From Candidatus Heimdallarchaeota archaeon (GTDB taxonomy: Archaea; Asgardarchaeota; Heimdallarchaeia; JABLTI01): a stretch of 64,000 bases of DNA. The DNA lies in the NCBI GenBank assembly GCA_019058275.1, contig JAHLVW010000053.1, positions 33,361 through 97,360 of the forward strand, read 5' to 3'. Positions within the stretch are counted from its first letter, which is position 1; each line of letters opens with the position of its first letter. This document shows positions 3,702-23,647 of the stretch, in pieces. The position numbers were made by a program, and so were the translations under genes. The notes under the pieces were generated by a model. The model worked only from the letters and a program-made list of their open reading frames with translations, was not told the DNA's origin and made no database searches.

Positions 3702-3714
3702 AAGCCTATTTTGG

Positions 3715-4308: not shown

Positions 4309-4310
4309 CT

Positions 4311-4335
4311 CTATATAATTTTTGTATAGATTCCT
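4311..4335 (-). promoter_or_regulatory. Promoter/operator motif of the HTH regulator, shared with both DUF2229 operons
   Basis: Minus strand AGGAATCTAT-N4-AAATTATATAG; 19/21 match to the cores at 11073 and 14773. Confidence 0.45.
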
Positions 4336-4413
4336 ATAATTAGACTTAAATAAAAAATCATAGTGATTTCATAAAGGGAACATATTTATTAACAGTTCAG
4401 AGAAGATTTAACA

Positions 4414-5277
4414 ATGAGCAAAAAAAAAGTCGTCGTAGTAATTTCTGCGAGAAATGAAGAGAATTTTATTTCTAAAACAATTGATAGTTTACTTGCTCAA
4501 GATTTACCACCTGAATTAATTGTAGTTGTTGATGACGGTAGCACAGATAATACAGCTAATATAGTTAGAAAATATGAGAAAAAAGGAGTAGTTTTAATCA
4601 TGAGGGAAGATCGTATAGGTGATCCCAGTCTTTTAGGAACACCAATGATGGCTATTCCATTCTATATAGCATTTAAGTATATTGAGAATTCAAATACAGA
4701 TTTTGATTATATTATGATTTCTGGGGCAGATTGTGTTTATCAAACTAATTATATTGAAAAGCTTACAAAAAGATTGGATGAAAAGCTAAAATTGGTTATT
4801 GTTTCAGGATTTCAACATGGTGAGAGTTTGAATAGAGATCATGCTCGTGGAGCTGGAAGGATTATTAAGAAAAGTTTCTGGCAAATTTATGGTTCAAAAT
4901 ATCCGTATCCTTCTTATTTGTGGGAAAGTGGAATTATATTCACTGCACAAATGCATGGTTTGCAAGTCAGAGGTTATCGGGATGTATTCTTTACTTCTCA
5001 AAGAATAAGTGGAACAAATATTAACATGATTAGATATGGTCGAATGTTAAGAGCAATCAAATACCCATTTTTAATTGTAATAGGACGAGCTGTAAGAATT
5101 ATTAAGAAGACAGGAATAAAATCAGCAATTGACTTGCTTGCAGGATATTGTCTGAAACCCATACAGTCTTTTAAAGTAGACAGAAAAATTAGTGAATTTA
5201 TTTCAAAGCATTATCTAATACAAAAAATACGTAATTTTTTTCTAAGATATGATAAGAATAATTTAAAGAGCATTTAA
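4414..5277 (+). CDS. Glycosyltransferase family 2
   Basis: VVISARNEE, VVVDDGSTD, GAD motif. Confidence 0.9.
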   Translation: MSKKKVVVVISARNEENFISKTIDSLLAQDLPPELIVVVDDGSTDNTANIVRKYEKKGVVLIMREDRIGDPSLLGTPMMAIPFYIAFKYIENSNTDFDYIMISGADCVYQTNYIEKLTKRLDEKLKLVIVSGFQHGESLNRDHARGAGRIIKKSFWQIYGSKYPYPSYLWESGIIFTAQMHGLQVRGYRDVFFTSQRISGTNINMIRYGRMLRAIKYPFLIVIGRAVRIIKKTGIKSAIDLLAGYCLKPIQSFKVDRKISEFISKHYLIQKIRNFFLRYDKNNLKSI

Positions 5278-5283
5278 ACCCTA

Positions 5284-6426
5284 GTGAACAAAATGAATAG
5301 AGTACTCCTAGTAACCCACAGTTTAACTCCTGATAAACGAATTGATCAAGAGGCAATGTCATTAGTGGAAGCTGGGTATGAAGTCTATTTGATTTGTAGA
5401 GGTAAAAAGAAAGATAAAATTCCTGAATTTTACAAAGAAATTTTCCTTGTTCATCTTACAAGAAAACAAATGGCTTATTTTCCAGGTGCTGTAAGAAAAG
5501 CACGAATGAAATACACAGAGTTAATAGAGAATGTCAAACCGGACATAATTCATGCAAATGATCTTCCAGCAGCAAACATTGTAAGAAAGATCATACCGAA
5601 AGGTGTGAAGTTTATTTATGATGACCATGAAGTATGGGAATTATATTATAAGCTATATGCTGAACGAACTGCTGATTGGTTTAAAAAAATTCAAAGAAAA
5701 TATTTGCAATTAATAGCAAAATATCTTTCTAGAAAAGTAATGAAACAAGCAGATTTAGTAATTTTTGTGAATGAATATTGGGTTAAATTTTATAAGAAAA
5801 AAGGCATAAATCCTAATAAAATTATTTTTATTGAAAATTTTCCCATGAAGAAGGATATTGATACTGCTCTTAGTACTAACATTGACTTAGATGAATTCTT
5901 TAAGAAAGATCCCCGTAAGAAAATTGTTACAGCCTCTAAATTTGCTAAATTATCCGAGGGAACATTGAGAAACATTGACAATATCGCAAAAGCGGTCAAT
6001 GAGCTTGATGATTGGGTTATTGTCAATTTTGGTGTTTCTGATGAAAAATATAAGAAGTTGGGTGTAGTTTCTGTTGGATTCAAACCCAGATTTGAGTTCA
6101 TTGCTAGTTGTAGTAAATGTGACATAATTCTTAATCCTCTAATTTTAGATGAGCTTATGCACCATAGCTCACCAAACAGACTTTTTGAAGCAGCTTTGTT
6201 AGGTGTAAGGATTATTTCATCAAAAGTGAAAACCTTAGTGGATAAATTTGATGATTTACTAATCTGGGTTAATTCTGATACACCAAAAGAAGATGTAAAG
6301 AAAATTTTGAAGAATGTAGATGAATATCCTTCTGGAGAAGAAATCCGAAAAGTAGCTCAGATATTTACTTGGGAAAATGAAGGAAAGAAACTGATTGCAA
6401 AGTATAATGAATTAAGCACTAACTGA
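5284..6426 (+). CDS. Glycosyltransferase family 4 (GT-B)
   Basis: DKRIDQEA, PDIIHAND, IYDDHE, SPNRLFE, FTWE. Confidence 0.85.
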   Translation: MNKMNRVLLVTHSLTPDKRIDQEAMSLVEAGYEVYLICRGKKKDKIPEFYKEIFLVHLTRKQMAYFPGAVRKARMKYTELIENVKPDIIHANDLPAANIVRKIIPKGVKFIYDDHEVWELYYKLYAERTADWFKKIQRKYLQLIAKYLSRKVMKQADLVIFVNEYWVKFYKKKGINPNKIIFIENFPMKKDIDTALSTNIDLDEFFKKDPRKKIVTASKFAKLSEGTLRNIDNIAKAVNELDDWVIVNFGVSDEKYKKLGVVSVGFKPRFEFIASCSKCDIILNPLILDELMHHSSPNRLFEAALLGVRIISSKVKTLVDKFDDLLIWVNSDTPKEDVKKILKNVDEYPSGEEIRKVAQIFTWENEGKKLIAKYNELSTN

Positions 6427-6435
6427 ATATCAGGT

Positions 6436-7488
6436 TTACATTGATTCTTCTATTATCTTTACAATTCTTTTACTGGTATCCTCATAACCGTAAAGGTTCT
6501 CATCAAAGTCTATGTCCTTCGTTGTGATTTCTTCAAATCTTTGATGTATAGTATTAGGTTCTGCCAAGAAATTACCACCACTTCTGATAGTTTCAAGCCA
6601 TTCAGTACTATCCCTTACAGTAATACAAGGTGTTTGATTCCAATAAGCTTCTTTTTGAACACCACCAGAATCAGTGATTACAATTTTTGCTTCTCTTAAT
6701 AATTTTGTAAACTGAAGATAACCTAGAGGTTCAACTACAATCAATTTTTCTTTTACTTTATCAAATAAATCAAGTTCAATCAATTTACTTTTCGTTCGAG
6801 GATGAATAGGTAAGATTATCGGTTTTTTAATTTTAAATAAATCTTGAACTATAATGGGTAATCTTTCTTGATTGGTATTTTCAGCTTGGTGAATGGTTAA
6901 AAAGATAAATTCATCGGGCAATTCAAAATCAATTTTAATATTTTCAACTTGCTTTTTCATTTTCATAGCAATTTCAAACATTGTATCCCCTACAGAGTAA
7001 ACATCTGATGTTATACCCTCGTTTTGCAAATTTTCTATTGCCACATTTGTTGGGCAAAATAAAAGATTAGAACAATGATCTGTTAAAATACGGTTGATTT
7101 CTTCAGGCATTCGTTTATCAAAACTTCTTAAACCAGCTTCCAAATGACCTAATTTTACATGGAGTTTTGTTGCTGCTAATGCTCCACCTAAAGTTGAATT
7201 TGTATCACCAGGTACAAGCACTAAATCAGGTTCCTCTTTTAGGATTACATCTTCAACTCGTTTTAATATCTCTCCAGTTTGATAGCCATGTAGACCAGAA
7301 CCAATGTCCAAATTGTAATCAGGCATTTTCTTACTAAGTTCTTGAAAGAATACATCAGACATTTGAATATCATAATGTTGCCCTGTATGAACAAGAATGT
7401 GTTCATGTTTGTTTTCAATAATAGCATCTATAAGAGGAAACATTTTGATGAAATTAGGTCTTGCTCCAACGATTGACAGAATTTTCAA
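6436..7488 (-). CDS. wecB: UDP-N-acetylglucosamine 2-epimerase (non-hydrolysing)
   Basis: GARPNFIK, HTGQHYD, GDTNST, HLEAGLRS, PEEINR, TDSGGVQKEA; has HQAEN instead of usual HRAEN. Confidence 0.93.
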   Translation of the reverse strand: MKILSIVGARPNFIKMFPLIDAIIENKHEHILVHTGQHYDIQMSDVFFQELSKKMPDYNLDIGSGLHGYQTGEILKRVEDVILKEEPDLVLVPGDTNSTLGGALAATKLHVKLGHLEAGLRSFDKRMPEEINRILTDHCSNLLFCPTNVAIENLQNEGITSDVYSVGDTMFEIAMKMKKQVENIKIDFELPDEFIFLTIHQAENTNQERLPIIVQDLFKIKKPIILPIHPRTKSKLIELDLFDKVKEKLIVVEPLGYLQFTKLLREAKIVITDSGGVQKEAYWNQTPCITVRDSTEWLETIRSGGNFLAEPNTIHQRFEEITTKDIDFDENLYGYEDTSKRIVKIIEESM

Positions 7489-7724
7489 AGTGAATTACCA
7501 CATTATAGTTTTAATGAATATTATCAATTTAACATTTCGATTTCTAAAAGAGTTAATAATTCTTTCTGAGCGATTTTGATTGCTCTATTACTCATAAACA
7601 ATGTAAATATTTATCTAAATGCTAGTGAATAAAAACGATTATTTTGTTAGCTAACTATTGAAGAAAAGCTAAAATGGCAAATAAAATTTATACTTAATAA
7701 AGACAACAATACTGATGTGAAATA

Positions 7725-8069
7725 ATGGGTAAAATTCTAATGCTAAAACACAGCGATCTACCAGATAATAGAGCAGATCGAGAAGCTGTAGCATTAAAAA
7801 AAGCAGAGCACAATGTCTTTATGATTTGCACAGGGGTAAAGAACAAAGATTCTGATGACATTTACGAAAAGATTTTCTTTGTGGATAGGAATGGCAAAGT
7901 AAAATTTTATCTGCGTAAAGAAGTGAAAAAAGTAGCACAAAAATACCAACAAGTGATTGATGAAATAAAACCAGATATTGTTCATGCTCACGATATTGTT
8001 ACAGCAAATGTTGTTAGATATTTAGATAAGAAAAATTGGTTTTTTGTCTATGACAATCATGAAGTTTAG
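7725..8069 (+). pseudogene. Truncated paralog of the GT4 at 5284 (N-terminal third only)
   Basis: KPDIVHAHD..YDNHEV*ELY versus KPDIIHAND..YDDHEVWELY; TGG>TAG, and homology ends soon after. Confidence 0.85.
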
Positions 8070-8157
8070 GAATTATACAAAAAAGGGGATTTGAAAGAAT
8101 TAAGTTTAAGATTAAATTTTTAAACAAGTAGTTCAGTTTAAAGTTGGAAAAATTGTT

Positions 8158-9363
8158 GTGAACAATATGGCAGTTTTAATAACAGATGGAGCTTACAAAA
8201 ATGCTTTAGCTATTCTTAGAGCTTTAGCAACAAATGATGTAGAGGTTTACTGCTCAAGTACGAAAAAAAAGTCTGTCAGTTTTTATTCTAAATACTGTAA
8301 GAAGCACTTTATTTATTCAAATCCTGCTTCTCAACCTGAGAAATTTAAGAAAGAAATGTTGTCCATTGTTAAAAACTATGATATTGATGTTTTAATACCA
8401 GTAGGTGTATCTACAACTGCATTGATTTCTCAGCAAAAATCTGATTTAGAGAAATATACTCGTGTACCAGTTGCTGACTACCAAGACTTTGCTAAAGCGC
8501 ATGATAAGCAAATTGCTAACGATATTGCTCGAGACAATAAGGTTCCAGTACCATTAACATATACTCCTACAACCGAGTCAGAGCTAAAAAAACATCTGAA
8601 AGAACTTGGTTTACCAGTTATGTTAAAAGCACGAAAAGGAAGCGGAATTTTTAGCTTAGCAAGAACTAAATCTGAAGCATTTAAAATTTGGAGAAATTAC
8701 GAGAAGAAATCTAAAGAAACGAAAAGCATTGGGATAACAGATTATTTACCAGTTATTCAAGAATACTTGTCAGGAGAGATAATAGATGTCTTATTTGTCT
8801 TCAATAAAGGTCAACTTAGAGGATTATTAACACAAAGACGATTTTTGACCTTACCTCCAGAAGGTGGAGTAGGAGCACTAAATATTACAGTAAATGATCC
8901 TCAAACTGCTCGACATGCAGCTAATCTAATGAAAGCATTAAATTGGCACGGAGTAGGTATGGCAGAATTTAAACGAGATGTTAATGGTGTTCCAAAATTA
9001 ATAGAAATTAATCCAAAGTTTTGGGGAACAAGTGAAGTATCAATAGCTGCAGAAATGAATTTCCCATATATGCTTTACAAGATAGCCATGGATGGTGATA
9101 TAAAACCAAAATTCAGTTTCTTGTATCCAAAGAGATTTGGTTGGCCAGTTCCAATGGGTGTGAAACAAATAATTGAATCTGATACACCAATTGAATCATT
9201 AAAAGAATATTTGAAGCTTTTTACAGAAGCAAATAGTCATGACATCAGATTGTTGTCAGATCCAAAACCATTTTCATTTCAACTTTATCAAACAGCAAAA
9301 GTGATTTTGAATAAAATACTTCAAAGCAGATCAAAGAGGATTGATTTAGACAGCTTCCGTTAA
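8158..9363 (+). CDS. ATP-grasp carboxylate-amine ligase (polysaccharide-cluster type)
   Basis: PVMLKARKGSG, VIQEYL, GMAEFK, LIEINPKFWG. Confidence 0.85.
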   Translation: MNNMAVLITDGAYKNALAILRALATNDVEVYCSSTKKKSVSFYSKYCKKHFIYSNPASQPEKFKKEMLSIVKNYDIDVLIPVGVSTTALISQQKSDLEKYTRVPVADYQDFAKAHDKQIANDIARDNKVPVPLTYTPTTESELKKHLKELGLPVMLKARKGSGIFSLARTKSEAFKIWRNYEKKSKETKSIGITDYLPVIQEYLSGEIIDVLFVFNKGQLRGLLTQRRFLTLPPEGGVGALNITVNDPQTARHAANLMKALNWHGVGMAEFKRDVNGVPKLIEINPKFWGTSEVSIAAEMNFPYMLYKIAMDGDIKPKFSFLYPKRFGWPVPMGVKQIIESDTPIESLKEYLKLFTEANSHDIRLLSDPKPFSFQLYQTAKVILNKILQSRSKRIDLDSFR

Positions 9364-10778
9364 TTTTGCTCTTCTTTTATTTTACAATAGCCCAAAATCT
9401 TCTTGTAAATTGAACGCCAAGGATATTGAAATTGTTCAAATGAATGATTATGAACTAGAAATACAAATGTACCTTTATAGAAAGAAATTACATCTATTTG
9501 TTTCTTGATAGCATCTAAAACTTTCTGAGGTTTATCCAATTCAGGATAATTATCGATTATTGTCATATCCATTATTATGAGTGGGTACTCTTTTATGTTT
9601 AATTTTCTGTTTTCCAAGATATCAAAGAAATAGTAAGGATAACAAGTACCAGCTCTATAACCATAGCATTTTGAGTAACCTAAAGAAGAATCATGGACCA
9701 AATTTGCTTTCTCATAATTCCTGAGTGATTCAGGTACTTTAATTCTTAAGTAATGGTTTCTAACCCCAAAGTTTTCTGAATCTATAATATCTTTTAGGAT
9801 GTTTTTCTCTTTGAGTAGTTGATCAAAATCTAAATATGAGCTGTAGGAAGAATGAAGACCAACCTTGTGACCTTTCTCAATTATTTTCTTAATAATTCCT
9901 CTAACCTTAGCTGAATAAGGATCATATCTATTATCTAACTTTGATGTACCATTAAGAAGAAAATAGAAAGTTGATTGAAAACCATATTTCTCAGATGTGA
10001 ATAGAATATAGTTGAATGTGTTTTTACGTAATGTAAAAATCCAAGCGAAATTTCGCCATAATTCACTAAGAAAACCTCTAAGTGATTTTTTTCTGACAAT
10101 CTGACTGATAATAGATCTAACCCGTTTCTTAAAAGTACCCAGCTTTAAATCATCGATGTCATGAGTTAGAAATAGTTGAAAATTCATTTCCTTTCTTTTT
10201 AATACTGGTTGCAGTTTCTTCAGTAAAAACCATAACAATTCAACATACTCATTAACTATTGGTCTCTCAAGATAATTCTCGATATAAGCTAAGCTCTTTT
10301 TACAAGGGAAATTAGCATCTTCATCAGTTATTTGATTGACAATTTCTTCATATCTTGTCAGCATAAAGAATGCTGAAGCAAAGAAATCGACATTTGTAAT
10401 GATTTTTTCTTGTGAATAATCAATGAATGGTTTTTGTGGTTCTTTTTGTTCTCCAGAATAAATAATTGGTAATTCATCAAAATCAATAATATCTAACAAA
10501 TCCTTATTTCGATATTTCTGTAATGGTGAAGGTGGTAAAGAATCCTTTTCCAGATAATTATCAATCCAAATTTTGTTGCTATAAATAATTAAATCAAAAT
10601 CATTCTCGTTTTTTTTGTCAAATCCATAATAAATCTTGATTAAATGTTTAGAATCCTTTTGATAATCATTAATACTAATTAAATCATATTTAAGACCAAG
10701 AAAATCCTCTAGTAGAGTATTAATAACATATTGTACTGAAGGTTGATTAATTTCCGAATCAATAGCAACTAAAATCAT
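9360..10778 (-). CDS. Polysaccharide deacetylase-family protein with N-terminal extension
   Basis: FFMLTRYEE, LTHDID, VGLHSSY, RNHYLR, DSSLGY, GYRAGTCYPY. Confidence 0.85.
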   Translation of the reverse strand: MILVAIDSEINQPSVQYVINTLLEDFLGLKYDLISINDYQKDSKHLIKIYYGFDKKNENDFDLIIYSNKIWIDNYLEKDSLPPSPLQKYRNKDLLDIIDFDELPIIYSGEQKEPQKPFIDYSQEKIITNVDFFASAFFMLTRYEEIVNQITDEDANFPCKKSLAYIENYLERPIVNEYVELLWFLLKKLQPVLKRKEMNFQLFLTHDIDDLKLGTFKKRVRSIISQIVRKKSLRGFLSELWRNFAWIFTLRKNTFNYILFTSEKYGFQSTFYFLLNGTSKLDNRYDPYSAKVRGIIKKIIEKGHKVGLHSSYSSYLDFDQLLKEKNILKDIIDSENFGVRNHYLRIKVPESLRNYEKANLVHDSSLGYSKCYGYRAGTCYPYYFFDILENRKLNIKEYPLIIMDMTIIDNYPELDKPQKVLDAIKKQIDVISFYKGTFVFLVHNHSFEQFQYPWRSIYKKILGYCKIKEEQN

Positions 10779-11071
10779 TTCGAGTAATCCATTATTATTG
10801 TACTATAAATGATATATATCATAAGAAAGTACTATTTATCATTAGCTTTTTCTTTTATCTTTTTTTCTCTTTAGCTTTTATTTGTTTATTTCTAGAAGAA
10901 CGTCTAATTCAATACTAATATCTTCTAATTCTAATTTTTCATGTTGTATTTTAATTCTATCCAACCTATCCTTTTCAGCCATTTTGAAGCTTTTAGCACT
11001 TTTTTTGCCATGTTAGTTTTCTCCAAAATTAAAATATCAGCTTTTAGGTTGTTTTAACTCTATTTCTCTTG

Positions 11072-11111
11072 CAAGAATTTATTGTTAAATTATATAGGGA
11101 TTTCTATTTTA
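11072..11111. repeat. 40-bp conserved upstream element, copy 1
   Basis: 39/40 identical to 14772-14811. Confidence 0.9.
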
Positions 11112-11236
11112 TGGAGAAATAAAAAGAACCTAGCTGTTAAGCAACTAGATAGCTTAATCATAAGCAAGAAAAATTTTTAAATTTGTACCAAAAAGTACAA
11201 TTAATTGATAGTTAATCAATTCATTAAGTTAAGTGA

Positions 11237-12274
11237 GTGGATTTTTTGGCTCCGTTAAAAGTTGGTTTACCAAGAGCGTTAGTGCACTACAAATTTTTCA
11301 CCTTGTGGGAAACTTTCTTTGCAGAATTAGGCGCAGAAGTTATTGTTTCTCCTGAAACTAATAAAAAAATTCGCGAAATGGCTATTAGAGCTGCACCTGA
11401 TGAAGATTGTTATTCTACAAAACTTTACTTTGGTCATGTACTTGCTTTGAAAGATCAAGTTGACTATTTGTTTATTCCTCGTTTTGGGAGTAATCACAAA
11501 ATAAACGTTGGTTGTCCAAAATTCTTAGGACTTGCAGAAGTTTTACGATCAATATTCCCTGATTTACCACCAATAATTCGACCATACTATTCAAAGGCAA
11601 AAAGTGGTCACAAAAATATTCGTCTCTTGTTTATCGCCTTTTCTGTAGGTTATAAATTTACGAAGAACCCCTTCAAAATTTTACATGCTTTCCGGAAATC
11701 AGTTAAGGCCTATAAAAAATACAAAAAGAATCTAATTATTGATGAAAATACCCTTCACCAATGGGAACATTCAGAAGAAGTTCTTAATGATCGCCCCATT
11801 TTAACAGATAACGAGAAACCGCTTAAAATTGCTCTAGTAGGCCATTGCTATGTAATAAATGATGGTTATGCATCATTAGATATCAGAAAAAAACTATGTG
11901 AACTCGGAGCTGATGTTATTACTTCAGAACAAATGCCACGAAACATTATTGAGCAATATATGGAAACACTTGATTTCAATATGTATTTTGATTACGAGAG
12001 AGAAATACTTGGAACAATTATGCATTTCCTCGAATCGAAAACAGTTGACGGGATAATTCACTTAATGATTTTTGGATGTGGACCTGACTCCATAGTGGGA
12101 GAAATGGCTGCAAGATTCTATAAAAGAAAACCAGAAACCCTATTATTACAATTAGTGCTAGATGACCTAACAGCAGAAGCTGGTTTACGTACAAGAATAG
12201 AAGCTTTTATTGATATGATAAAAAGGAGAGAAAAAAAAGTTGCCATTCACCTTCCCACACTTCGGATCTCTTAA
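11237..12274 (+). CDS. DUF2229 / acyl-CoA dehydratase activase-related Fe-S subunit, copy 1
   Basis: VGLPRAL, DEDCYSTKLYFGH, GCPKFLG, FGCGPDS, AGLRTRIEAFID. Confidence 0.85.
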   Translation: MDFLAPLKVGLPRALVHYKFFTLWETFFAELGAEVIVSPETNKKIREMAIRAAPDEDCYSTKLYFGHVLALKDQVDYLFIPRFGSNHKINVGCPKFLGLAEVLRSIFPDLPPIIRPYYSKAKSGHKNIRLLFIAFSVGYKFTKNPFKILHAFRKSVKAYKKYKKNLIIDENTLHQWEHSEEVLNDRPILTDNEKPLKIALVGHCYVINDGYASLDIRKKLCELGADVITSEQMPRNIIEQYMETLDFNMYFDYEREILGTIMHFLESKTVDGIIHLMIFGCGPDSIVGEMAARFYKRKPETLLLQLVLDDLTAEAGLRTRIEAFIDMIKRREKKVAIHLPTLRIS

Positions 12275-13331
12275 GTACGTGTTCAAAGTATTATTGAACG
12301 AATTGGGACGTTTTGATTTAATCATGCCTACTAAACCAAATAAGAAAACAGCTCAATTAGGAGCAATTCATTCTCCAGAATTCATTTGTACCCCATTTAA
12401 AATAACTCTTGGTACTTTCATAGAGGGATTGGAAAGAGGAGCAACGGAGCTAGGTATGGGGGGTTGCAATGCTTATTGCCGTTTTGGTTATTATTGGCCT
12501 GTACAAAAACTCATTCTCGAAGATTTAGGATACGATTTCAAATTTATAGCTCTAAACTACGAGTCTCCAAAAGAAATAATTCAAGTGATTAAAAAAGAAA
12601 TAAGTCCAGATTTGAACCTACTTCAAATAATAAGAGCATTTAGAATCATGTGGTTAAAAAATCGTTTAACCGATTTAGTTGACAAATTAATCTACAAATA
12701 TAGAGCTATTGAAACTACGAAAGGAAGCACAGAAAGAGTAGCCCAAAAAGCTTTCAACATGATAGTTGAATTAAAAGGTATTCGAAATATAAAGAGGTCA
12801 ACTAGAACATTACCACAAATGTTTGAAAATGAAATTGACTATGATAAAAAAGCTAATCCTTTGAAAGTTTGTGTTAATGGAGAAATCTATGTTGTTTTAG
12901 AACCCTCATTGAACTTAGATATTATGAAAAGATTGAATGAAATTGGTGTTCATGTTGAAACTCCGATTAGTCTGGGAAGATACATTGATGTTGGTGTAAA
13001 ACTGAATCCTTTCAAGAAATTTCATTCTCAACATTCAGTAGCTGCAGCAAAACCTTACGTCGAACATCGCTGTGGAGGAGAAACACAAGAAAATCTTGGA
13101 GACGTAATCATGTACAAAAAAGAAGGGTGGGATGGGATAATTCATCTTTATCCTTTTACTTGTATGCCTGAAATAATCTCGAGGAGCATTTTCCCACAGT
13201 TAAGTAAGAAATATGACATGCCAGTCATGTCTCTAGTTTTAGACGAACAAACAGCTGAAGCTGGTTTACAAACAAGATTAGAGGCTTTTATTGATCTTCT
13301 AGCTCGGAAAAGGGATGCAAATGGGAATTAA
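12240..13331 (+). CDS. 2-hydroxyacyl-CoA dehydratase-like (PlsR-like) subunit, copy 1
   Basis: SPEFICTPFK, CRFGYY, GEIYVVLEP, PFTCMPE, DEQTAEAGLQTRLEAF. Confidence 0.85.
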   Translation: MPFTFPHFGSLKYVFKVLLNELGRFDLIMPTKPNKKTAQLGAIHSPEFICTPFKITLGTFIEGLERGATELGMGGCNAYCRFGYYWPVQKLILEDLGYDFKFIALNYESPKEIIQVIKKEISPDLNLLQIIRAFRIMWLKNRLTDLVDKLIYKYRAIETTKGSTERVAQKAFNMIVELKGIRNIKRSTRTLPQMFENEIDYDKKANPLKVCVNGEIYVVLEPSLNLDIMKRLNEIGVHVETPISLGRYIDVGVKLNPFKKFHSQHSVAAAKPYVEHRCGGETQENLGDVIMYKKEGWDGIIHLYPFTCMPEIISRSIFPQLSKKYDMPVMSLVLDEQTAEAGLQTRLEAFIDLLARKRDANGN

Positions 13332-13355
13332 AACAGCAAAATGAGGAGATAAAAT

Positions 13356-14320
13356 ATGATTAAAAACAATAGAGAATATTATCTTGGTGTGGATGTTGGT
13401 TCAATTAGTACCAATTTAGCACTTATTGATAAAGATCGTGAATTATATGAATCAGTTTACATTCAAACAGAAGGTCGACCTGTAAATTCGGTTCAAAAAG
13501 GTATAACTCTACTTAGAGAAAAAACATAAAAATTTCTGAAGCAGAAGCGACAAGCAGTGCACGTCAATTAACAGGAGTAGTGATTGGTGCAGACATCGTA
13601 AAAAATGAAATTACTGCTCATGCATTGGCTTCTTTGCATTATCATCCTGATATACAAACAATTATTGAAATTGGTGGTCAAGATAGTAAAATAATCATCA
13701 TTCGTGATGGTGTAGCAGTTGATTTTGCTATGAATACTGTTTGTGCAGCAGGAACAGGCTCCTTCCTTGATATGCAAGCAACAAGATTAGATATCCCAAT
13801 AGAGAATTTTGGTGATTTAGCTTTGAAATCAGAATCATCTGTTTAAATAGCTGGTCGATGTACTGTATTTGCAGAAAGTGATATGATCCATAAGCAACAA
13901 TTAGGTCATCCTACAGAAGATATCATCAAAGGTTTGTGTGAAGCATTAGCAAGAAATTACCTTAATAATGTTGGTAAGGGTAAAGATATTAAACCACTTA
14001 TTATGTTCCAAGGAGGAGTTGCTTCAAATATAGGTATGCGAGTTGCATTCAAGAAATACCTCGAAGAAGATATTATAGTTCCAGAACATTATGATGTAAT
14101 GGGAGCAATAAGGGCAGCTATTCTAGCTTTAGAAGATATGACAAAAAATCCTCATGAATCTTTATTTTATGGTTGGGATATTCCAGAAATGTCTTTTCAA
14201 ACAACTGGTTTTGAATGTGAAGGATGTCTCAATGTTTGTGAAATAGTTGAGATTAAAAAAAATAATGAATTAGTAGCTCGTTGGGGTAGTAGATGTGGTA
14301 AGTGGGATTTAGCTGATTAG
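13356..14320 (+). pseudogene. Acyl-CoA dehydratase activase (HgdC/BcrAD-BadFG ASKHA Fe-S ATPase), disrupted
   Basis: LGVDVGSIST, EIGGQDSK, CAAGTGSFLD, AGRCTVFAESD, FQGGVA; frameshift at about 13520-13530 and in-frame TAA at 13844. Confidence 0.9.
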
Positions 14321-14404
14321 TTAATAATTCACTTCCTTTTTTCTCATTCTATAATGCTCAATCCTTAATATAAAATATGAACTTTGTTTTAGTGGTGACT
14401 AGAT

Positions 14405-14566
14405 TTGAAGAACTATGATATAATAGCAATTGGAACTGGTTCGTCTATGAACATCGTTCCTACATTACTTAATTCCAACCCGGATTTGAAAATTGCAGTA
14501 ATTGATAAGGATGAACCTGGTGGGATTTGTTTAACTAAGGGGTGCATTGCAACAAAGATTTTGTAA
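14405..14566 (+). pseudogene. 5' remnant of dihydrolipoyl dehydrogenase-like gene (paralog of 17168)
   Basis: YDIIAIGTGSSMN..AVIDKDEPGGICLTKGCIATKIL* matches the N-terminus of the 17168 gene. Confidence 0.92.
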
Positions 14567-14711
14567 ATCCATATTGCATACGATACAGCTGTCTGACTAG
14601 AAATTTTGGTACTTTCCAAAGAGTTCTAATTGTATCCTTTTTTTCCTTAGTTTAATTAAGCTCTATTTTTTCATCATTCTGTTCACTTTTTTTAGAGGTT
14701 TCTTTTGTCAT
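14567..14711 (-). pseudogene. 5' remnant of an unknown divergent gene
   Basis: GGAGA RBS, then MTKETSKKSEQNDEKIELN*TKEKKDTIRTLWKVPKFLVRQLYRMQYGF running into the lpd remnant. Confidence 0.4.
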
Positions 14712-14771
14712 AATTTAATTCTCCCATACTTGTAATTATTAACTGAAGCAATTGAGAAATATCTTATCTAC

Positions 14772-14811
14772 CAAGAATTTATTATTAAATTATATAGGGA
14801 TTTCTATTTTA
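14772..14811. repeat. 40-bp conserved upstream element, copy 2
   Basis: 39/40 identical to 11072-11111. Confidence 0.9.
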
Positions 14812-14942
14812 CAGATAAATAAAAATCATGTAGTCGAACAACGACTAAAGAGAGTAATCATAGATTACATCAAAAAAGAAAGAAAAAGATATCAATAAGT
14901 AATATATAATACAAATATTGAGATTATCAAATTCGAGGTGGG

Positions 14943-15974
14943 ATGTTTATGTCTCACAAAATTGGAATACCAAAAGCATTAATTTACTATAAATTTGCTC
15001 CAATGTGGAGAACATTTTTTGAAGAACTGGGATTGGAAGTTATCATTTCACCAGAAACAACGAAAAAGATTAGAGAATTAGCAATTAGCTCAGCTCCAGA
15101 TGAGGATTGTTATACAACAAAGTTATACTTTGGGCATACAATGTATTTGAAAAATAAAGTGGATTTTTTATTCATTCCTCGTTTTGGTAGTAAACATAAA
15201 ACAGATATTGGTTGCCCAAAATTCATTGGTCTAGCTGATGTTTTACGTTCGATGTATTCAGATTTACCAGAAATTATTATGCCTCACTTTAATATTGCAA
15301 AAGGTAGGGACAATAAAATATCATTCTTTATCAAGGCATATTTAGTAGGATTAAGATTTACTAAAAATCCTATAAAAATAATTCAAGCATTTAGAAAGGC
15401 TATGATTGCATATAAACAATACAAAAAACAGTTAATTGTAGATATTGAAACTCTAAGCAGATGGGAACAATCAGAAATTATGGTTAACGATTTTCCTATA
15501 CTAAAGAAAGATGAAAAACCATTGAAAATAGCTCTAGTAGGGCATTCCTATGTTATTAATGATTCTTATTGCTCATTAGATATTCGTAACAAACTAAGGG
15601 AACTTGGAGTTGATATTATCACTTCGGAGCAAATGCCACGAGAGTTGATAGAAGAACAATTAGCAGAACACGAAGCAAATTTATATTTTGAATTCGAACG
15701 AGAAATTCTTGGAACAATTCTTTATTTCATTAACAATAAAACAATTGATGGAATTATTCATTTGATGATTTTTGGCTGTGGACCAGATTCACTTGCTGGT
15801 GAAGTAGCATCTAGATTCTCAAGACGTAATCCTGTTGTACCATTATTACAGCTTGTTATTGATGATCTAACAGCTGAAACAGGATTGAAAACTCGAATTG
15901 AAGCTTTTATCGATATGTTAAGACGGAGGGATAGTAGCTTTGCCTTTCAGTTACCCGCACTTCGGATCACTTAA
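14943..15974 (+). CDS. DUF2229 / acyl-CoA dehydratase activase-related Fe-S subunit, copy 2
   Basis: Collinear paralog of 11237 with the same Cys motifs. Confidence 0.85.
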   Translation: MFMSHKIGIPKALIYYKFAPMWRTFFEELGLEVIISPETTKKIRELAISSAPDEDCYTTKLYFGHTMYLKNKVDFLFIPRFGSKHKTDIGCPKFIGLADVLRSMYSDLPEIIMPHFNIAKGRDNKISFFIKAYLVGLRFTKNPIKIIQAFRKAMIAYKQYKKQLIVDIETLSRWEQSEIMVNDFPILKKDEKPLKIALVGHSYVINDSYCSLDIRNKLRELGVDIITSEQMPRELIEEQLAEHEANLYFEFEREILGTILYFINNKTIDGIIHLMIFGCGPDSLAGEVASRFSRRNPVVPLLQLVIDDLTAETGLKTRIEAFIDMLRRRDSSFAFQLPALRIT

Positions 15975-17043
15975 TTACATTTTTGAAGTGATCTTTAGGG
16001 AAATTGGTAGAAATGATTTAATAATACCCAATAAACCAAGCAAAAAAACAATTCAATTAGGAGCAAGATATTCACCAGAATTTGTTTGTACACCATTTAA
16101 AATGACTCTTGGTACTTTTATTGAAAGTTTAAATAGAGGTGCAACAGAATTAGGAATGGGTGGAGGTAATGGTTATTGTCGTTTTAGGTATTATTGGTTT
16201 GTCCAAAAACTAATACTAGAAGACCTTGGTTATGATTGTAAATTTGTAACTTTTGATTATGAAGATCCTTTACAACTTTTGAGAACTTTCAAGAATGCAG
16301 GAAAAGATGTCAATTATTTGCAAACATTTAGAGCATTCAGATATGCCTGGGTAAAAAATAGGTTAACAGATAAAGTAGATGAATTGCTTTACAAATATAG
16401 AACAATAGAATCTGAAAAAGGAGTATCCGAAAAATTTGCAGAGAAATTATATCGAGACATAGTCGAAATTAAAGGATTTAGAAATTGTCGAAAATTCCTT
16501 AGAAATTTACCTGAAATATTCGAACAAGAGATTGATGTGATAAGAGATACTGACCCATTAAAAATAGCAATAAATGGTGAAGTCTATGTTGTTTTAGAAC
16601 CAGCATTAAATCTGGACATAAACAAGAGGTTGAATGAACTTGGAGTCATTACTAAAGCAACAGTAACATTAAGAAAATTTCTTGATATTGGACAAAGATT
16701 GAATCCATTCTATAAAATGGAACATGAAAAAGCAATAAAATATTCACGTAAGTATGTACCATATAACATTGGTGGCGAAACTCGCGAAAACCTTGGAGAT
16801 GTAATTTTATATAAAAAGAAGGGTTGGGATGGGTTGATTCATCTTTACCCATTTACTTGCATGCCTGAAATAATTACTCGCAGCATTTTTCCCCAAGTAA
16901 GTAGGGATTATGATATGCCTGTTTTGTCGTTGGTTTTAGATGAACACACTGGAGAAGCGGGTTATCAGACAAGACTTGAGGCATTTGTTGATTTGCTAAA
17001 ACGAAGAAGAGATATTTTGCGAGAGAAGAAAAGATTAACATAA
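15940..17043 (+). CDS. 2-hydroxyacyl-CoA dehydratase-like (PlsR-like) subunit, copy 2
   Basis: Collinear paralog of 12240; PFTCMPE, DEHTGEAGYQTRLEAF. Confidence 0.85.
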   Translation: MPFSYPHFGSLNYIFEVIFREIGRNDLIIPNKPSKKTIQLGARYSPEFVCTPFKMTLGTFIESLNRGATELGMGGGNGYCRFRYYWFVQKLILEDLGYDCKFVTFDYEDPLQLLRTFKNAGKDVNYLQTFRAFRYAWVKNRLTDKVDELLYKYRTIESEKGVSEKFAEKLYRDIVEIKGFRNCRKFLRNLPEIFEQEIDVIRDTDPLKIAINGEVYVVLEPALNLDINKRLNELGVITKATVTLRKFLDIGQRLNPFYKMEHEKAIKYSRKYVPYNIGGETRENLGDVILYKKKGWDGLIHLYPFTCMPEIITRSIFPQVSRDYDMPVLSLVLDEHTGEAGYQTRLEAFVDLLKRRRDILREKKRLT

Positions 17044-17167: not shown

Positions 17168-18601
17168 ATGAAAGAGTATGATATAATAGCTTTTGGAACT
17201 GGTTCTGCAATGAATATTGTTTCAGCAGTTTTGGGAGCTAAACCCGAATTAAAAGTTGCTGTAATTGATAAGGATGAACCTGGGGGTATTTGTTTAACAA
17301 AGGGATGTATTCCAACAAAGATTTTACTTTATCCCTCAGAAATTATTAGAACAATTCAGAGGGCTAGTAATTTTGGTATAGATGTTGATTTAAGGAAAGT
17401 TGATTTCAAATTTGTGATGGAAAGAATGCGATCACTTATTGGACATGATATGAGCAATATCAGTCAGGGATTATCTCAAACAGAGGAATTAGATTATTAT
17501 AAAGATATGGCAGAATTCATAGGACCTTATACGCTAAAAGTTGGAGATGAGAAGATAAAAGGGAAAATGATTCTTCTCTGTACGGGTTCTAAACCAAAGA
17601 TTCCTAAAATTAAGGGATTAGAAGAGATCGATTACCATACAAGTGACAGTATACTACAGATTAGTGAATTACCAAAAACAATTGGTATTGTTGGAGGAGG
17701 ATATATTGCAGCTGAATATGGTCATTTCTTTTCTACAATGGGATCAAAAGTATCAATCATTGGAAGAAATCCCCAATTTTTACCTCAAGAGGAACCTGAA
17801 GTTTCTGCATTAGCCAAAAAAGAACTGAGCAAACACATGGAGATAAGAACTAATGCTGAAGTTAAAGTAATTGAAAAAACAGCTGATGGGAAAAAGAAAA
17901 TTATCTCTACAAACCGAGATACTAATGAAACAATCGAATTAATAGTAGATGAAGTTTTCATAGCAGCTGGAAGAAGTTCAAATTCAGACATTCTTCATCC
18001 CGAAAAAAGTGGTATTAAGACTGACAAAGATGGTTGGATTATAGTTAATGAATTTCTTGAGACAACAAAACAAAATATCTGGGCTTTTGGTGATGCAAAT
18101 GGTAAATTCCTATTCAAACATGCTGCAAATTATGAAAGTCAGATTGTTTATTATAATGCAGTTCAAGAACAAGAAAATAAAGTAAGCTACCACGCCATAC
18201 CCCATGCAGTTTTCACAGATCCAGAAGTTGCTGGTGTTGGTCTTAGAGAAGCTGAAGCAATAGAGCAATTCGGTATCAAAGATGTCATTATTGGTTTCCA
18301 AAGATACCAAGATACAGCCAAAGGAATGGCTATGGATGTAGAAGATTTCTTTGTAAAGATAATTGTTCAGCGTGAAACTATGGAAATTTTAGGAGCACAC
18401 ATAATTGGTCCACAAGCATCAGTTTTAATTCAAGAAGTTATCAACTTGATGTATACTAATGATAGAAGTGTTTTGCCATTAATGCGAGGAATGCATATTC
18501 ATCCTGCTTTAAACGAAGTTGTGGAAAGAGCAGCTGGAAATCTAATGACTGTCGATCATTATCATCATCTATTAGAGCAAATGGGTTTGAGTGTTGATTA
18601 A
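17168..18601 (+). CDS. Dihydrolipoyl dehydrogenase / mycothione-reductase-like pyridine nucleotide-disulfide oxidoreductase
   Basis: Redox disulfide GGICLTKGCIPTK, GGGYIAAE, HIHPALNE. Confidence 0.9.
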   Translation: MKEYDIIAFGTGSAMNIVSAVLGAKPELKVAVIDKDEPGGICLTKGCIPTKILLYPSEIIRTIQRASNFGIDVDLRKVDFKFVMERMRSLIGHDMSNISQGLSQTEELDYYKDMAEFIGPYTLKVGDEKIKGKMILLCTGSKPKIPKIKGLEEIDYHTSDSILQISELPKTIGIVGGGYIAAEYGHFFSTMGSKVSIIGRNPQFLPQEEPEVSALAKKELSKHMEIRTNAEVKVIEKTADGKKKIISTNRDTNETIELIVDEVFIAAGRSSNSDILHPEKSGIKTDKDGWIIVNEFLETTKQNIWAFGDANGKFLFKHAANYESQIVYYNAVQEQENKVSYHAIPHAVFTDPEVAGVGLREAEAIEQFGIKDVIIGFQRYQDTAKGMAMDVEDFFVKIIVQRETMEILGAHIIGPQASVLIQEVINLMYTNDRSVLPLMRGMHIHPALNEVVERAAGNLMTVDHYHHLLEQMGLSVD

Positions 18602-19738: not shown

Positions 19739-21175
19739 TTGAATACATTGAACTTGGCAATAAAAAATACTAGATTGTTAACTTTTAAGGGAGAAAATCT
19801 TGGTATAATTGATGATGGTGCAATTGGCATTGATGGATCTAAAATCTGCTTTATTGGTGAATCCAAGAATCTAGATCAAAAGAATTATGACAAAGTAATA
19901 GATGGGTCGAAGCACGTTATTATGCCTGGTCTAGTTAACGCTCACATTCATACAGTTTTAACTATTCTGAGAGGAGGAGCTCAAGATTTACCAGAACTGC
20001 AATGGATGAATAAAGGGATAGGACCAATTTCAAAACATATGAAATCTGAAGATTTCATTGTAGGAGCAAAACTTGGTGTGTTAGAGGGATTAAAATCAGG
20101 CACAACAACTTTTGCTGAATATACAAGTAATGTTTCAATTTTAGTTGAAAAGGTATTCCTTCCATTTAATGCTCGAGTTGTTGCTACTGAAACGATCAAT
20201 GAAGTAAATAGAAATAGAGCTCATTTAAAACCAACAGATATTTATGAATTCGATAAAGAGAAAGGAGAAGCAGCTTTTAAGAGAGCAAATGAATTATTTG
20301 CCAAGTATCAAAACTCAGAGCTAGTTAATTGTATGTATGGACCTCAAGCAATAGATATGATTTCTTTAGATTTATTGTCTTCAATAAGAGAAGAAGCTAT
20401 TGCTAGAAAAAGCAAAATATATGTCCATGTTGCTCAAGGTGGTAGAGAACGACTTCAAATTCAAGGTCGTTTTGGTAAAGATGCTTCTACAGTAAAAGTT
20501 CTTGATAAAAATAATTTATTAGATGAAAATTTGCTTGCAGCACACTGTCATGACACTAGTGAAGATGAAAGAGAGATTATGGTTAAGAAAGGAGTAAAAA
20601 TGGTAGGATGTCCGAGTTCAATATGCATGATTGATGGAATAGTTCCACCGGTAGGTCATTTCAATTCGTTAGGCGGAGATGTTGGTTTAGGTTCAGACCA
20701 AGCCCCTGGTCCAGGATTGCACAACATGTTTTGCGAAATGCGTACAATTAGTGTTCTTACAAAAGCTATGTTAAGAGATCCAACTGCATTGCCTGCATGG
20801 GAAGTTCTTAGAATTGCTACAGTTGGTGGAGCAAAAATCCTTGGTTTAGATAGTAAAATCGGCAGTTTAGAAGTTGGAAAGCAAGCAGATGTAATAATGG
20901 TTAACTTGAACAGTTTGAATCTTGCACCTGCAGTTCAAAAACCTTTTAGAAATTACATTCCAAACCTTGTTTATTCATCAACTGGTTATGAAGTTGATAA
21001 TGTAATAATCAATGGAAAGGAAATTATTGTAAACAAAAATTTCGTATCAATAAACCAAGAAGAGGTACTAAAAGAAGCTAATTTGAGAGCACAAAGAATT
21101 TTTGGAGATGCAACAGAAGATTGGACTAAAGCTGGTTCTCAATTAGTTAATTATGCAAAAAAGGGATTTCTTTAG
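19739..21175 (+). CDS. Amidohydrolase, MTA/SAH-deaminase-like
   Basis: MPGLVNAHIH, SGTTT, HVAQ, GLGSD, IGSLEVGKQAD. Confidence 0.9.
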   Translation: MNTLNLAIKNTRLLTFKGENLGIIDDGAIGIDGSKICFIGESKNLDQKNYDKVIDGSKHVIMPGLVNAHIHTVLTILRGGAQDLPELQWMNKGIGPISKHMKSEDFIVGAKLGVLEGLKSGTTTFAEYTSNVSILVEKVFLPFNARVVATETINEVNRNRAHLKPTDIYEFDKEKGEAAFKRANELFAKYQNSELVNCMYGPQAIDMISLDLLSSIREEAIARKSKIYVHVAQGGRERLQIQGRFGKDASTVKVLDKNNLLDENLLAAHCHDTSEDEREIMVKKGVKMVGCPSSICMIDGIVPPVGHFNSLGGDVGLGSDQAPGPGLHNMFCEMRTISVLTKAMLRDPTALPAWEVLRIATVGGAKILGLDSKIGSLEVGKQADVIMVNLNSLNLAPAVQKPFRNYIPNLVYSSTGYEVDNVIINGKEIIVNKNFVSINQEEVLKEANLRAQRIFGDATEDWTKAGSQLVNYAKKGFL

Positions 21176-22553: not shown

Positions 22554-23647
22554 TTAATCAAGCTGATTACATTTTAGCATTTGTTTTCCAAATACATCAG
22601 GGTGAAAGACACTTTCTACAATCAATACATTCTGATGAGGATTGTCCTCGCTTCAACCTATTTGGAAAATCCTGCTCAATTATAAGTGGTTTGCTCATAG
22701 AGATGAGATCTGCTAGATTATTCGAAAGAATTGCTTCCATTGCAGTTTTATTTCTTATTCCATCAACTAAAGCAAGTGGAACTGATGGAATACCCTTTCT
22801 AATCTTCTCAGCATGGCCTGCAAAATTCGCTTCATAGTAAGGAGAATTCTCATCAGGTTTTGCTCTAACCTTCCGAATAGATCTATCTTGTTTAGGACCA
22901 CCTCCAGAAATCTCAATTAGATCTATGCCTTTCTCATCCAACCAAATAGCGATTTGTACAGATTCACTAATTGTGATCCCTCCATGAGAAGCAAAGTCAT
23001 CACAATTCATTTTTATAGCTATTATTGGTCCATTCCCAATTCGTTTCTTTATTGCTTTAAATACATCAAACAATAACCTTGCTCGATTTTCTATTGTACC
23101 ACCATAATCATCTGTTCTTTTGTTTACATTATCTGAAAGGAATTGACTCAATAGATAACCATGAGCACCATGTATTTGCACTCCATCAAAATCCGCTTGT
23201 ATAGCCAATTCAGCTGCATTTGCAAAACTATCTATAACCAGTTCAATATCATCAATTGTTGCTTCCCTGGCTTGCAAATTGTCTATTTCATATGTTGATG
23301 CAGTCATTCGATTAGCTTTACTATTATAACCTGCATGATTGATTTGAGCTATGATGGGAACTTCATGAGAATGAACAATTTTTGTTAATTCTTTCATTTT
23401 TGGGATGTGGTTTTCATTCGTTAAACCAGATTGACCTGTGTGCGCTTTACCACTTTCGATAACATAAGAATGCCCCTTTAATAAAACCTAATCCACCTGC
23501 TACTAATTTCTCATAATAATCTAGTATAGGTTGTCGTAAAACACCAGCCTCATCAGACCAGTAAGAAGTAGTTGCAGATCTGATTAAACGATTTTTTAAT
23601 TCAAAATTTTTTAAATTAAATGGAGTGAATATTTTTGACAAAGGCAA
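22554..23647 (-). pseudogene. NADH:flavin oxidoreductase (Old Yellow Enzyme family), two frameshifts
   Basis: LKNRLIRSAT, QINHAG, IHGAHGYLLSQFLS, RTDDYGG; shifts at a GGGG run near 23475 and a CCC run near 22600, so assembly error is possible. Confidence 0.85.

Follow-up and report, generated by a model that had tools for sequence, protein, structure and literature searches.

A tandemly duplicated, putative split Fe-S enzyme module with a broken activase gene in an Asgard archaeal genome

Two gene pairs and the remains of an activase gene

The window analysed here is a stretch of 64,000 nucleotides (nt) from the genome of a Candidatus Heimdallarchaeota archaeon (contig JAHLVW010000053.1), and the subject of this work is a tandem set of genes at 11237-17043 of that window, which encode the putative catalytic subunits of an ATP-dependent Fe-S enzyme together with the remains of their activase. 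The window is part of one contig (C44) of a 4.12-Mb metagenome-assembled genome (MAG), G000, which has 118 contigs and 92.8% completeness. Because NCBI names the nearest homologues as Heimdallarchaeota, "Asgard group", Lokiarchaeum ossiferum and Promethearchaeota, the label "Asgard-like" given to this DNA in an earlier note is reasonable. Four intact open reading frames (ORFs) are present, all on the + strand (Table 1), and they form two pairs, A1/B1 and A2/B2, the ORFs of the first pair overlapping by 35 nt. The A proteins carry DUF2229 followed by an HGD-D tail at the C-terminus (Pfam E 3e-7 in A1 and 3e-8 in A2). In the B proteins the same two Pfam families are matched only weakly, with 27.0 and 28.9 bits for DUF2229 (gathering score 29.4) and 25.3 and 23.5 bits for HGD-D (gathering score 28.4). 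The two pairs of a DUF2229 gene and a dehydratase-like gene described in the earlier note were therefore found again, A1 and A2 being 64% identical and B1 and B2 63%.

The A and B subunits are distant paralogues of each other, B1 being 28% identical to A1 over the C-terminal half. Cluster-type cysteine motifs are found in both (DEDC, GCPKF and FGCGPD in A; FICTPF, YCRF and FTCMPE in B), and C58, C93 and C281 of A1 are invariant across 83 sequences of the family to which it is assigned below. The AlphaFold model of A1 has a pLDDT of 93.9, and the solved structures with the best matching folds are HadBC, DCCP and BzdNO/MbdON, at TM-scores of 0.46-0.58 and 11-16% identity. A sequence search of the PDB with A1 gave DCCP as the sole match (E 0.008-0.036); membership of the DCCP family is nevertheless not indicated, as the NCBIfam double_cubane model (NF040772) scored 15.3 and 15.6 bits against a cut-off of 350.

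Between the two pairs lies a single Fe-S activase gene of the ASKHA type, ending in FECEGCLNVCEIVEIKKNNELVARWGSRC as previously reported, and the report that this gene is broken also proved right. It survives in three pieces, one of 57 amino acids (aa) in one frame and two of 88 and 145 aa in another, the latter two being split by an in-frame TAA at 13844-13846. The 88-aa and 145-aa pieces match BcrAD_BadFG (E 8.6e-18 and 2.4e-8) and also TIGR00241. The 57-aa N-terminal piece has no activase-family match in Pfam or NCBIfam, and it was assigned to the activase on account of its identity to the N-termini of intact activases, which is 61-72% for six of the seven compared and 42% for that of the C96 operon (see next section).

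The lesions were identified by alignment with the sister genome G004 (95% DNA identity here), which is intact at both sites. After position 13517 the window lacks the 10 bp GAAAAAATAG, with a frameshift as the consequence, and this loss corresponds to a slip between two GAAAAAA runs; at 13844-13846 the window has TAA against TCA in G004. Public contigs give a consistent picture: X1 and X3, from different samples of the same study, carry both lesions (X1 is possibly the window's own source), X6 (~95% identical) carries neither, and X5 (40.6 kb, 9 differences) has the deletion together with a C at 13845, so that the codon is intact. From G004 and these contigs we conclude that the lesions are real and not errors of assembly, and, since X5 has the deletion alone, that the frameshift came first and the nonsense mutation later. 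The activase gene is a real and recent pseudogene, and its decay is specific to this strain lineage.

Orthologous activases are intact after A1-type pairs in G011 (332 aa), L126 (whose A is 85% identical to A1) and L136, and at the A1-type pair G010:C20 the activase has been cleanly lost. The intact activase of the C55 operon is closely related to the dead gene, whose pieces share 69-85% identity with it. Seven intact activases were compared, representing three groups, namely that of C55, the A1 group (G011) and C96; six of them are mutually 73-85% identical and the C96 activase stands apart at 50-53%, with A and B subunits ~60-70% identical between groups.

Concerning the origin of the two units, the 99-nt stretch upstream of each is 78% identical between copies and has a 40-nt core with 38 of 40 positions identical, the coding DNA being 72-75% identical. 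The same 40-nt element precedes A1 and A2 in G004. It has only two sites in the window genome at six or fewer mismatches, which gives no sign of a wider regulon, and it was not found in the 18 other loci searched, loci of other genera included; it may be a promoter or operator. Copy 1 consists of this putative promoter, A1, B1, the dead activase and a 157-nt relic of the 5' end of an Lpd-like gene, 78% identical to 17169-17325; at the relic a 53-aa ORF (14405-14566) resembles the N-terminus of the 477-aa Lpd-like protein. Copy 2 consists of the putative promoter, A2, B2 and the Lpd-like gene, with no activase gene after B2, and the layout in G004, a close relative, is the same. The Lpd relic thus looks like a leftover of the duplication, and the homologous flanks indicate that the duplication took place in situ. 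In phylogenetic trees (described below), A2 clusters with A genes from G009, G010 and G003 that are not linked to a second pair (SH-aLRT, an approximate likelihood ratio test, 99 and 97) and A1 with G010:C20, G011 and two metagenome loci; since each copy groups with genes of other genomes, the duplication is old. It should be noted that the flanks and the grouping of A2 with unlinked genes of three genomes point in different directions.

Purifying selection and proposed activation in trans

To judge whether the pairs are still in use, we considered the ratio of nonsynonymous to synonymous substitution rates (dN/dS) against G004, which is 0.19 for A1, 0.125 for B1, 0.18 for A2 and 0.10 for B2. 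Both pairs are under purifying selection. Two further A-B-activase operons are intact in the same genome (C55:99546-102717 and C96:51153-54420), and pairs with no adjacent activase exist elsewhere (G009:C22 and G010:C21, of A2 type, and G010:C20, of A1 type). On the strength of these three observations the pairs can be read as functional and served in trans, most likely by the C55 or the C96 activase. The suggestion of the earlier note that the lineage may have lost the activity does not agree with these data, as the decay is strain-specific, the pairs are under purifying selection and two operons are intact. We therefore propose, with a probability of about 0.7, that the locus holds two catalytic cores of a split ATP-dependent Fe-S enzyme next to a wrecked dedicated activase, and that the pairs have been kept and are served in trans. 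The locus would then be a naturally occurring hint that activases may act in trans, which is the more modest of the implications discussed here.

The mechanism that we envisage is the following. An activase homodimer of the ASKHA type, with a bridging [4Fe-4S] cluster, would accept an electron from a low-potential donor, and ATP hydrolysis would drive that electron into the A/B heterodimer, each subunit of which would bind an Fe-S cluster through three conserved cysteines; the reduced cluster could then act on a carbonyl (ester-like) substrate by ketyl-type reduction or by dehydration. The linked activase of this strain lineage underwent the 10-bp slip deletion and later the nonsense mutation, and purifying selection has preserved the catalytic pairs; these are most likely still in use, and the activase of the C55 operon or of C96 would fire both of them in trans. 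Cluster binding, electron flow and trans-activation are what we infer from the sequences, whereas gene content, homology, the conserved cysteines, the clade, the order of the lesions, selection on the pairs and the presence of intact paralogous activases are observed directly.

Several points weigh against this proposal. The activase pieces themselves give dN/dS values of 0.21, 0.39 and 0.27, which are based on small counts and lie modestly above those of the pairs. All these ratios are averaged over the whole divergence between G000 and G004, which is older than the loss of the activase, and a very recent relaxation of the pairs would consequently be invisible. Cluster binding is predicted from conserved cysteines and the fold only. 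In addition, the deep branching of the split family is poorly supported (54-56 of ~121 inner branches below 80), and the contamination estimate of the MAG is 6.8%.

Table 1. Coordinates of the features of the tandem locus and of the block downstream (window numbering), followed by the bacterial lipid-type clusters (numbering of each locus)
Feature	Position	Strand	Basis
40-nt conserved upstream element, copy 1; AT-rich, TATA-like core	11073..11112	+	~125 nt before A1
A1, Red1-type subunit (DUF2229 + HGD-D tail), 345 aa	11237..12274	+	Pfam DUF2229 E 1.5e-44
B1, Red2-type subunit, 363 aa	12240..13331	+	weak DUF2229/HGD-D matches; Cys motifs
Activase pseudogene (BcrAD_BadFG ASKHA ATPase + C-terminal Cys4 tail)	13356..14320	+	Pfam, NCBIfam, G004 alignment
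Remnant of the 5' end of an Lpd-like gene	14406..14562	+	78% identical to 17169-17325
40-nt conserved upstream element, copy 2	14773..14812	+	38/40 match to copy 1
A2, second Red1-type subunit, 343 aa	14943..15974	+	DUF2229 E 2.8e-46
B2, second Red2-type subunit, 367 aa	15940..17043	+	63% identical to B1
Lpd-like flavoprotein disulfide reductase, 477 aa	17168..18601	+	NCBIfam NF004947
Glycine-rich predicted membrane protein of no known family, 328 aa	18686..19672	+	Lpd block
TRZ/ATZ-type amidohydrolase, deaminase-like	19739..21175	+	Pfam Amidohydro_1 E 4.5e-40; Lpd block
Bacterial lipid-type clusters	L133 5422-13715; L135 1409-10572; L137 4180-12143; L140 5366-13591

The split family and the fused PlsA/Ger-type proteins

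The genes described above belong to a family of split modules that proved to be large. An exhaustive search with A1, clustered at 50% identity, gave 2366 clusters with E<=1e-3, of which 390 have E<=1e-30. The best 150 clusters consist almost entirely of standalone proteins of ~300-400 aa, accompanied by a few A+B fusions of ~700 aa. Among the 120 longer proteins listed, 63 are A+B fusions of ~600-790 aa that lack an activase (E 1e-74 to 4e-42), those with a name being from Chloroflexota or Dehalococcoidia; the other 57 listed are of ~860-1490 aa (50 of them of 1370-1491 aa), reach a best E of only 1.4e-31, and carry activase domains in all cases except one partial protein. A1 is 26-31% identical to these 57 listed proteins (27-30% for 55 of them).

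Of 57 metagenome loci returned, 25 were mapped, and in 18 of these the module includes an activase; the remaining seven are cut by contig ends, broken or activase-less. Thirteen of the 18 read A-B-activase contiguously, L140 reads B-A-activase, and L136 reads B and then A-B-B-activase followed by genes for the Lpd-like protein, the membrane protein and the amidohydrolase (6742-16273; its A is 74% identical to A1). The additional B genes of L136 have no A partner. L133, L135 and L137 (3/18) show the order activase-B-A-A-B, and these are independent precedents for one activase with two catalytic pairs, an arrangement that the earlier note had proposed. What defines the split DUF2229 family is a standalone DUF2229 protein (~300-400 aa) whose gene precedes that of a paralogous B and one activase gene, the activase having ~325 aa and a Cys4 tail, and this is what was found; the three-gene A-B-activase operon is the norm of the family. 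Named in databases as "acyl-CoA dehydratase activase-related protein" operons and present in Asgard archaea, Bacillota and Chloroflexota, they are the window genes' own family, from which the locus differs in having the pair twice in tandem and the linked activase as a pseudogene.

No anaerobic route that turns ester into ether lipids is known besides the PlsA/Ger family, whose tested members are all fused forms. To this family belong PlsA/PlsR of C. perfringens (CPE1194/1195), the single-gene PlsA of Enterococcus and Lactococcus, and Ger of T. maritima (Tmari_0479) and D. alkenivorans. PlsA/PlsR is described as Act1-Act2-Red1 plus Red2 in the accessible part of PMC12838417, and in that of PMC13159169 Ger is described as "BBD", two activation domains and then DUF2229, an arrangement that every alkyl-ether producer has kept; the same paper already reports homologues of Ger from Loki- and Heimdallarchaeota. 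With these enzymes the window genes have the superfamily and the domain set in common, namely a BcrAD_BadFG activase, a DUF2229 Red1 and a Red2 with an HGD-D tail. However, the window has three separate genes with one activase domain, as opposed to two fused ones, and A1 and A2 begin directly with DUF2229, without the fused N-terminal activase domains. The split three-gene form is not described in the accessible parts of the PlsA/Ger literature; the supplements of PMC13159169 (table S21 and data S2) may list split hits. In our scans the control genomes of T. maritima and L. lactis matched DUF2229, in line with the papers, and the 80 loci listed by the scan for fused-type genes are mostly from MAGs, together with Ca. 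Brocadia pituitae, Methanolobus vulcani and Desulfocarbo indianensis; neither T. maritima nor C. perfringens is among them.

The window genome itself encodes one fused protein (C16:10950-15341, 1463 aa) with two activase domains, DUF2229 and Red2, whose gene adjoins two genes of APH-family phosphotransferases and is three genes away from an acyl-ACP thioesterase. This protein forms a long branch inside the fused clade (it is found in L011, which is G000:C16:5001-22000, at 5950-10341 on the minus strand); it is the genome's closest PlsA/Ger-like gene and the obvious candidate for the published Asgard Ger homologue (PMC13159169). A1 is colinear with its residues 651-951, at 26% identity by BLASTP and 30% in the genome search, and B1 aligns with its C-terminus as the counterpart of Red2. 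In 25 fused proteins of ~1400 aa, which represent an architecture class and stand in for verified PlsA/Ger enzymes, six cysteines are invariant (C720, C762 and C931 in Red1; C1047, C1082 and C1336 in Red2), and they correspond to the three cysteines of A and the three of B. After the second activase domain the same 25 proteins have a Cys4 motif (C603, C606, C610, C629), which has its counterpart in the tail of each of the seven intact split activases examined.

The phylogenetic position was evaluated with two trees of Red1 domains rooted with Red2 sequences (a quick IQ-TREE search, with SH-aLRT support only). The fused BBD domains form one clade on a long stem (SH-aLRT 100; 37 and 22 rows) and the Asgard split A proteins form a separate one (SH-aLRT 100; 15 and 16 rows); with weak support, the fused clade is joined to some of the split and A+B-fused sequences. 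The view of the locus as a split PlsA/PlsR (Ger)-like module thus has to be divided: the DUF2229 branch, the colinearity, the six cysteines and the Cys4 tail are in its favour, but the pairs lie outside the BBD clade (SH-aLRT 100). In these trees the fused class stands in for PlsA/Ger. Judging from sequence, the genes are best assigned to the DUF2229 branch of the BCR/HAD/DCCP/PlsA-Ger superfamily and the pairs to an Asgard clade of the large split family, outside the BBD clade; the locus is accordingly a duplicated member of the split family and not a PlsA/Ger orthologue.

Other known systems resemble the pairs in fold. HgdAB/HadBC with HgdC/HadI (3o3m, 3o3n, 4eht, 1hux) give the best folds for the A1 model (TM 0.55-0.58, E ~2e-8) and are likewise heterodimers of two paralogous subunits with an activase of the same family; they differ in that identity is 11-16%, that the window activase has an additional Cys4 tail and that the window offers no CoA-transferase context. 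DCCP/DCCP-R (6eno, 7yyl, 7yzm) fits equally well and is an ATP-dependent reductase with a partner activase, but DCCP is a homodimer with six cysteines on one chain, whereas in the window pairs the cysteines are divided between two different chains, three on each. Class I benzoyl-CoA reductase (BzdNO 8s02; MbdON 9g87/9gai) has a similar fold (TM ~0.5) and the same activase logic; however, it has no sequence-level match to the window genes, its activating module is a heterodimer fused into the complex, and its substrates are aromatic CoA thioesters.

Concerning the substrate, a fatty-acyl ester, as for PlsA/Ger, is the single most likely class and still a doubtful one, and a 2-hydroxyacyl-CoA is unlikely. 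The pairs might be glycerolipid ester reductases like PlsA/PlsR or Ger, converting an sn-1 fatty-acyl ester into an alkenyl or alkyl ether, but we regard this as rather improbable; the esters could come, for example, from the many PlsY-like acyltransferases of the genome, and a bacterial-type ether-lipid route in an Asgard archaeon would be the result, which is as tentative. The order Red1+Red2, the six cysteines and the Cys4 tail, all common to the fused PlsA/Ger-type architecture, argue for such a role, and against it stands the position of the pairs outside the BBD clade, in a genome that has a BBD protein of its own. Also in favour are the 13 PlsY-family (PF02660) matches of the genome and its acyl-ACP thioesterase. 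The PlsY matches, found on contigs C69, C54, C115, C8, C52, C70, C109, C42 and C34, include ~10 intact ORFs of 226-258 aa and two broken loci, and compare with 4-11 in relatives of the same genus and 0-3 in other families of the class; no match to PlsC (PF01553) or PcrB/GGGPS (PF01884) was found in the 92.8%-complete genome. PlsY in Loki- and Thorarchaeota has been published, according to the accessible part of PMC6737245. On the other hand, as cited in the accessible part of PMC13400652, only archaeal phospholipids were detected when the lipids of the cultured Lokiarchaeon were analysed.

A first, indirect link to lipids comes from a sister paralogue. This fifth group (A of 384-411 aa, ~47% identical to A1) is present in 15 of the 301 genomes sampled in the phylum, 6/10 in family f1 and 9/29 in family f2, and was not found in the window genome. 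Five loci extend far enough to show its whole A-B-activase module, which is intact in each of them, the other three being cut by contig ends. In three of the 15 loci (G010, G008 and G001) it follows, on the same strand, genes for a PLAT-domain protein, DegV/FakB and a PlsY-like protein, as in the cluster of G010:C1 (L202, that is G010:C1:101000-116000, at 3589-10913 on the minus strand), which reads PLAT, DegV/FakB, PlsY-like, A, B and activase; a 389-aa protein of no family follows the activase there and also in L203 and L204. In the window genome the orthologous DegV and PlsY genes are broken (C52:56226-57859) and that A-B-activase module is gone, which can be counted for an ester-reductase role. 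However, the three DegV-PlsY loci are 91-92% identical to each other and therefore represent one event in one lineage.

A second link is given by the bacterial clusters (Table 1). In L133, L135 and L137 the order is radical SAM/SPASM, activase, B, A, A, B, PIM/LpxL-type acyltransferase and B12-radical SAM, a CrtI-family or SRPBCC protein comes next in L135 and L137, and L140 adds FabD. The B12-radical SAM proteins score 81-124 bits with TIGR04072 ("lipid biosynthesis B12-binding/radical SAM protein"), below its cut-off of 360, and the gene set can be described as lipid-biosynthesis-like. Such surroundings also favour the ester-reductase role; other contexts of the family do not, as they are those of sporulation, glycolysis and pyrimidine genes. 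In Bacillota-type loci L142 (4282-10957) and L144 (5680-12587) the A-B-activase operon lies between spoVA/spoVAF and lysA: it is preceded by genes for SpoVAC, SpoVAD, SpoVAE and a GerA-like SpoVAF, and in L144 followed by a diaminopimelate-decarboxylase-like gene, with L139 (731-5274) and L145 showing the spoVA side and ending at A. This suggests expression in the forespore. Other modules are found with PFK and FBA and a DD-carboxypeptidase (L151, L155) or with pyrC and carA (L163). Among the annotated neighbours of A1-, A2- and C55-type loci there is no lipid gene, and the contexts of the A2 and C55 types are heterogeneous. The search for lipid genes in other Asgard genomes that the earlier note had suggested hence gave a divided answer, with DegV-PlsY beside the sister paralogue in 3/15 loci, all of one lineage, and no lipid gene among the annotated neighbours of A1-, A2- or C55-type loci.

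A wider proposal, slightly weaker still, is that the expanded split modules of this lineage, both pairs included, are ester-to-ether reductases acting on fatty-acyl glycerol phosphates made by PlsY-like and DegV proteins, with paralogues for each acyl chain or head group and an interchangeable pool of activases. If this were true, an anaerobic route to plasmalogen-like ether lipids built from fatty acids would exist in close archaeal relatives of eukaryotes. The analysis shows that a much larger split A-B-activase family exists beside the fused enzymes, which form one clade on a long stem joined weakly to split and A+B-fused sequences, and that the genomes of Asgard archaea each hold, in addition to a fused enzyme, several split modules paralogous to one another. 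Should any split module act on lipids, this would matter for the "lipid divide" and for the question of how the archaeal ancestor of eukaryotes could have dealt with fatty-acyl lipids, and the DegV-PlsY-A-B-activase cluster of the relatives is a concrete operon to express.

Unlikely alternatives (decay of the locus, dehydratase activity) and neighbouring genes

A different explanation is that, with the activase dead, both pairs are unused and the whole locus is heading for loss. The activase has been hit by two successive lesions, the same genome has lost another A-B-activase module and has broken DegV and PlsY genes, and the window holds other probably broken genes, all of which would fit. 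However, the four catalytic ORFs are intact, with dN/dS of 0.10-0.19, the upstream element is kept at 38/40 before both copies, pairs without an activase persist in other genomes and two intact paralogous activases are available, and we consider decay of the whole locus quite unlikely compared with activation of the pairs in trans.

Least probable is an ordinary 2-hydroxyacyl-CoA dehydratase of amino-acid fermentation (HgdAB/HadBC-like), held equally possible in the earlier note: such enzymes have the same fold and an activase from the same family, and NCBI gives some relatives that name, but HGD-D is matched only over the last ~100 residues (profile positions ~240-342) at 23-34 bits with DUF2229 as the main domain, a full-length HGD-D protein was not found in the genome (PF06050 matches only tails of DUF2229 proteins), the PDB sequence search found only DCCP (E 0.008-0.036), the Cys4 extension of the activase is common to fused PlsA/Ger-type proteins, and no CoA-transferase or 2-hydroxyacid dehydrogenase is present among the annotated neighbours in the window, at C55, at C96 or in relatives.

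Downstream of the second pair comes a block of three genes (Table 1). The Lpd-like protein reaches 740 bits with NF004947 (cut-off 592). Searches of Pfam, NCBIfam and the PDB gave no match to the 328-aa membrane protein, whose orthologues in family f1 are 43-52% identical. None of the NCBIfam deaminase and chlorohydrolase models reaches its cut-off with the amidohydrolase, orthologues of which occur in 22 of 41 related genomes; these 22 include 10 of the 14 genomes of a genus with no split-type match to the A1 query. The block follows A1-type modules in four loci, G010, G011 and L136 among them. It was considered as a functional partner of the pairs and rejected, because in G009 and G005 it occurs by itself, the 7-8.7 kb upstream being free of A, B and activase genes, and because the amidohydrolase is common in genomes where the A1 query gave no split-type match. 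The block reflects synteny within the family and tells us nothing about function, nor is it an obligate partner.

Upstream of the locus lies a divergent cluster of glycan type, with a UDP-GlcNAc 2-epimerase, glycosyltransferases, an ATP-grasp protein and a DUF7033/VimE-like deacetylase. Some other ORFs of the window are incomplete: a glycosyltransferase-4 fragment of 114 aa at 7725-8069, an Oxidored_FMN ORF at 22597-23397 that lacks the first ~80 profile positions, and an M20 peptidase, probably broken, whose N- and C-terminal parts are in two ORFs (24693-25253 and 25446-26027) ~190 nt apart. Finally, repeat proteins of the HEAT_2/PBS-lyase type recur at a distance of one to three genes from split modules; this was seen in three settings unrelated to each other, namely the C96 operon (L013, 9672-10520), the A2-type pair of G010 (L039, 5610-6356) and a bacterial lipid-type cluster (L133, 3322-3960).

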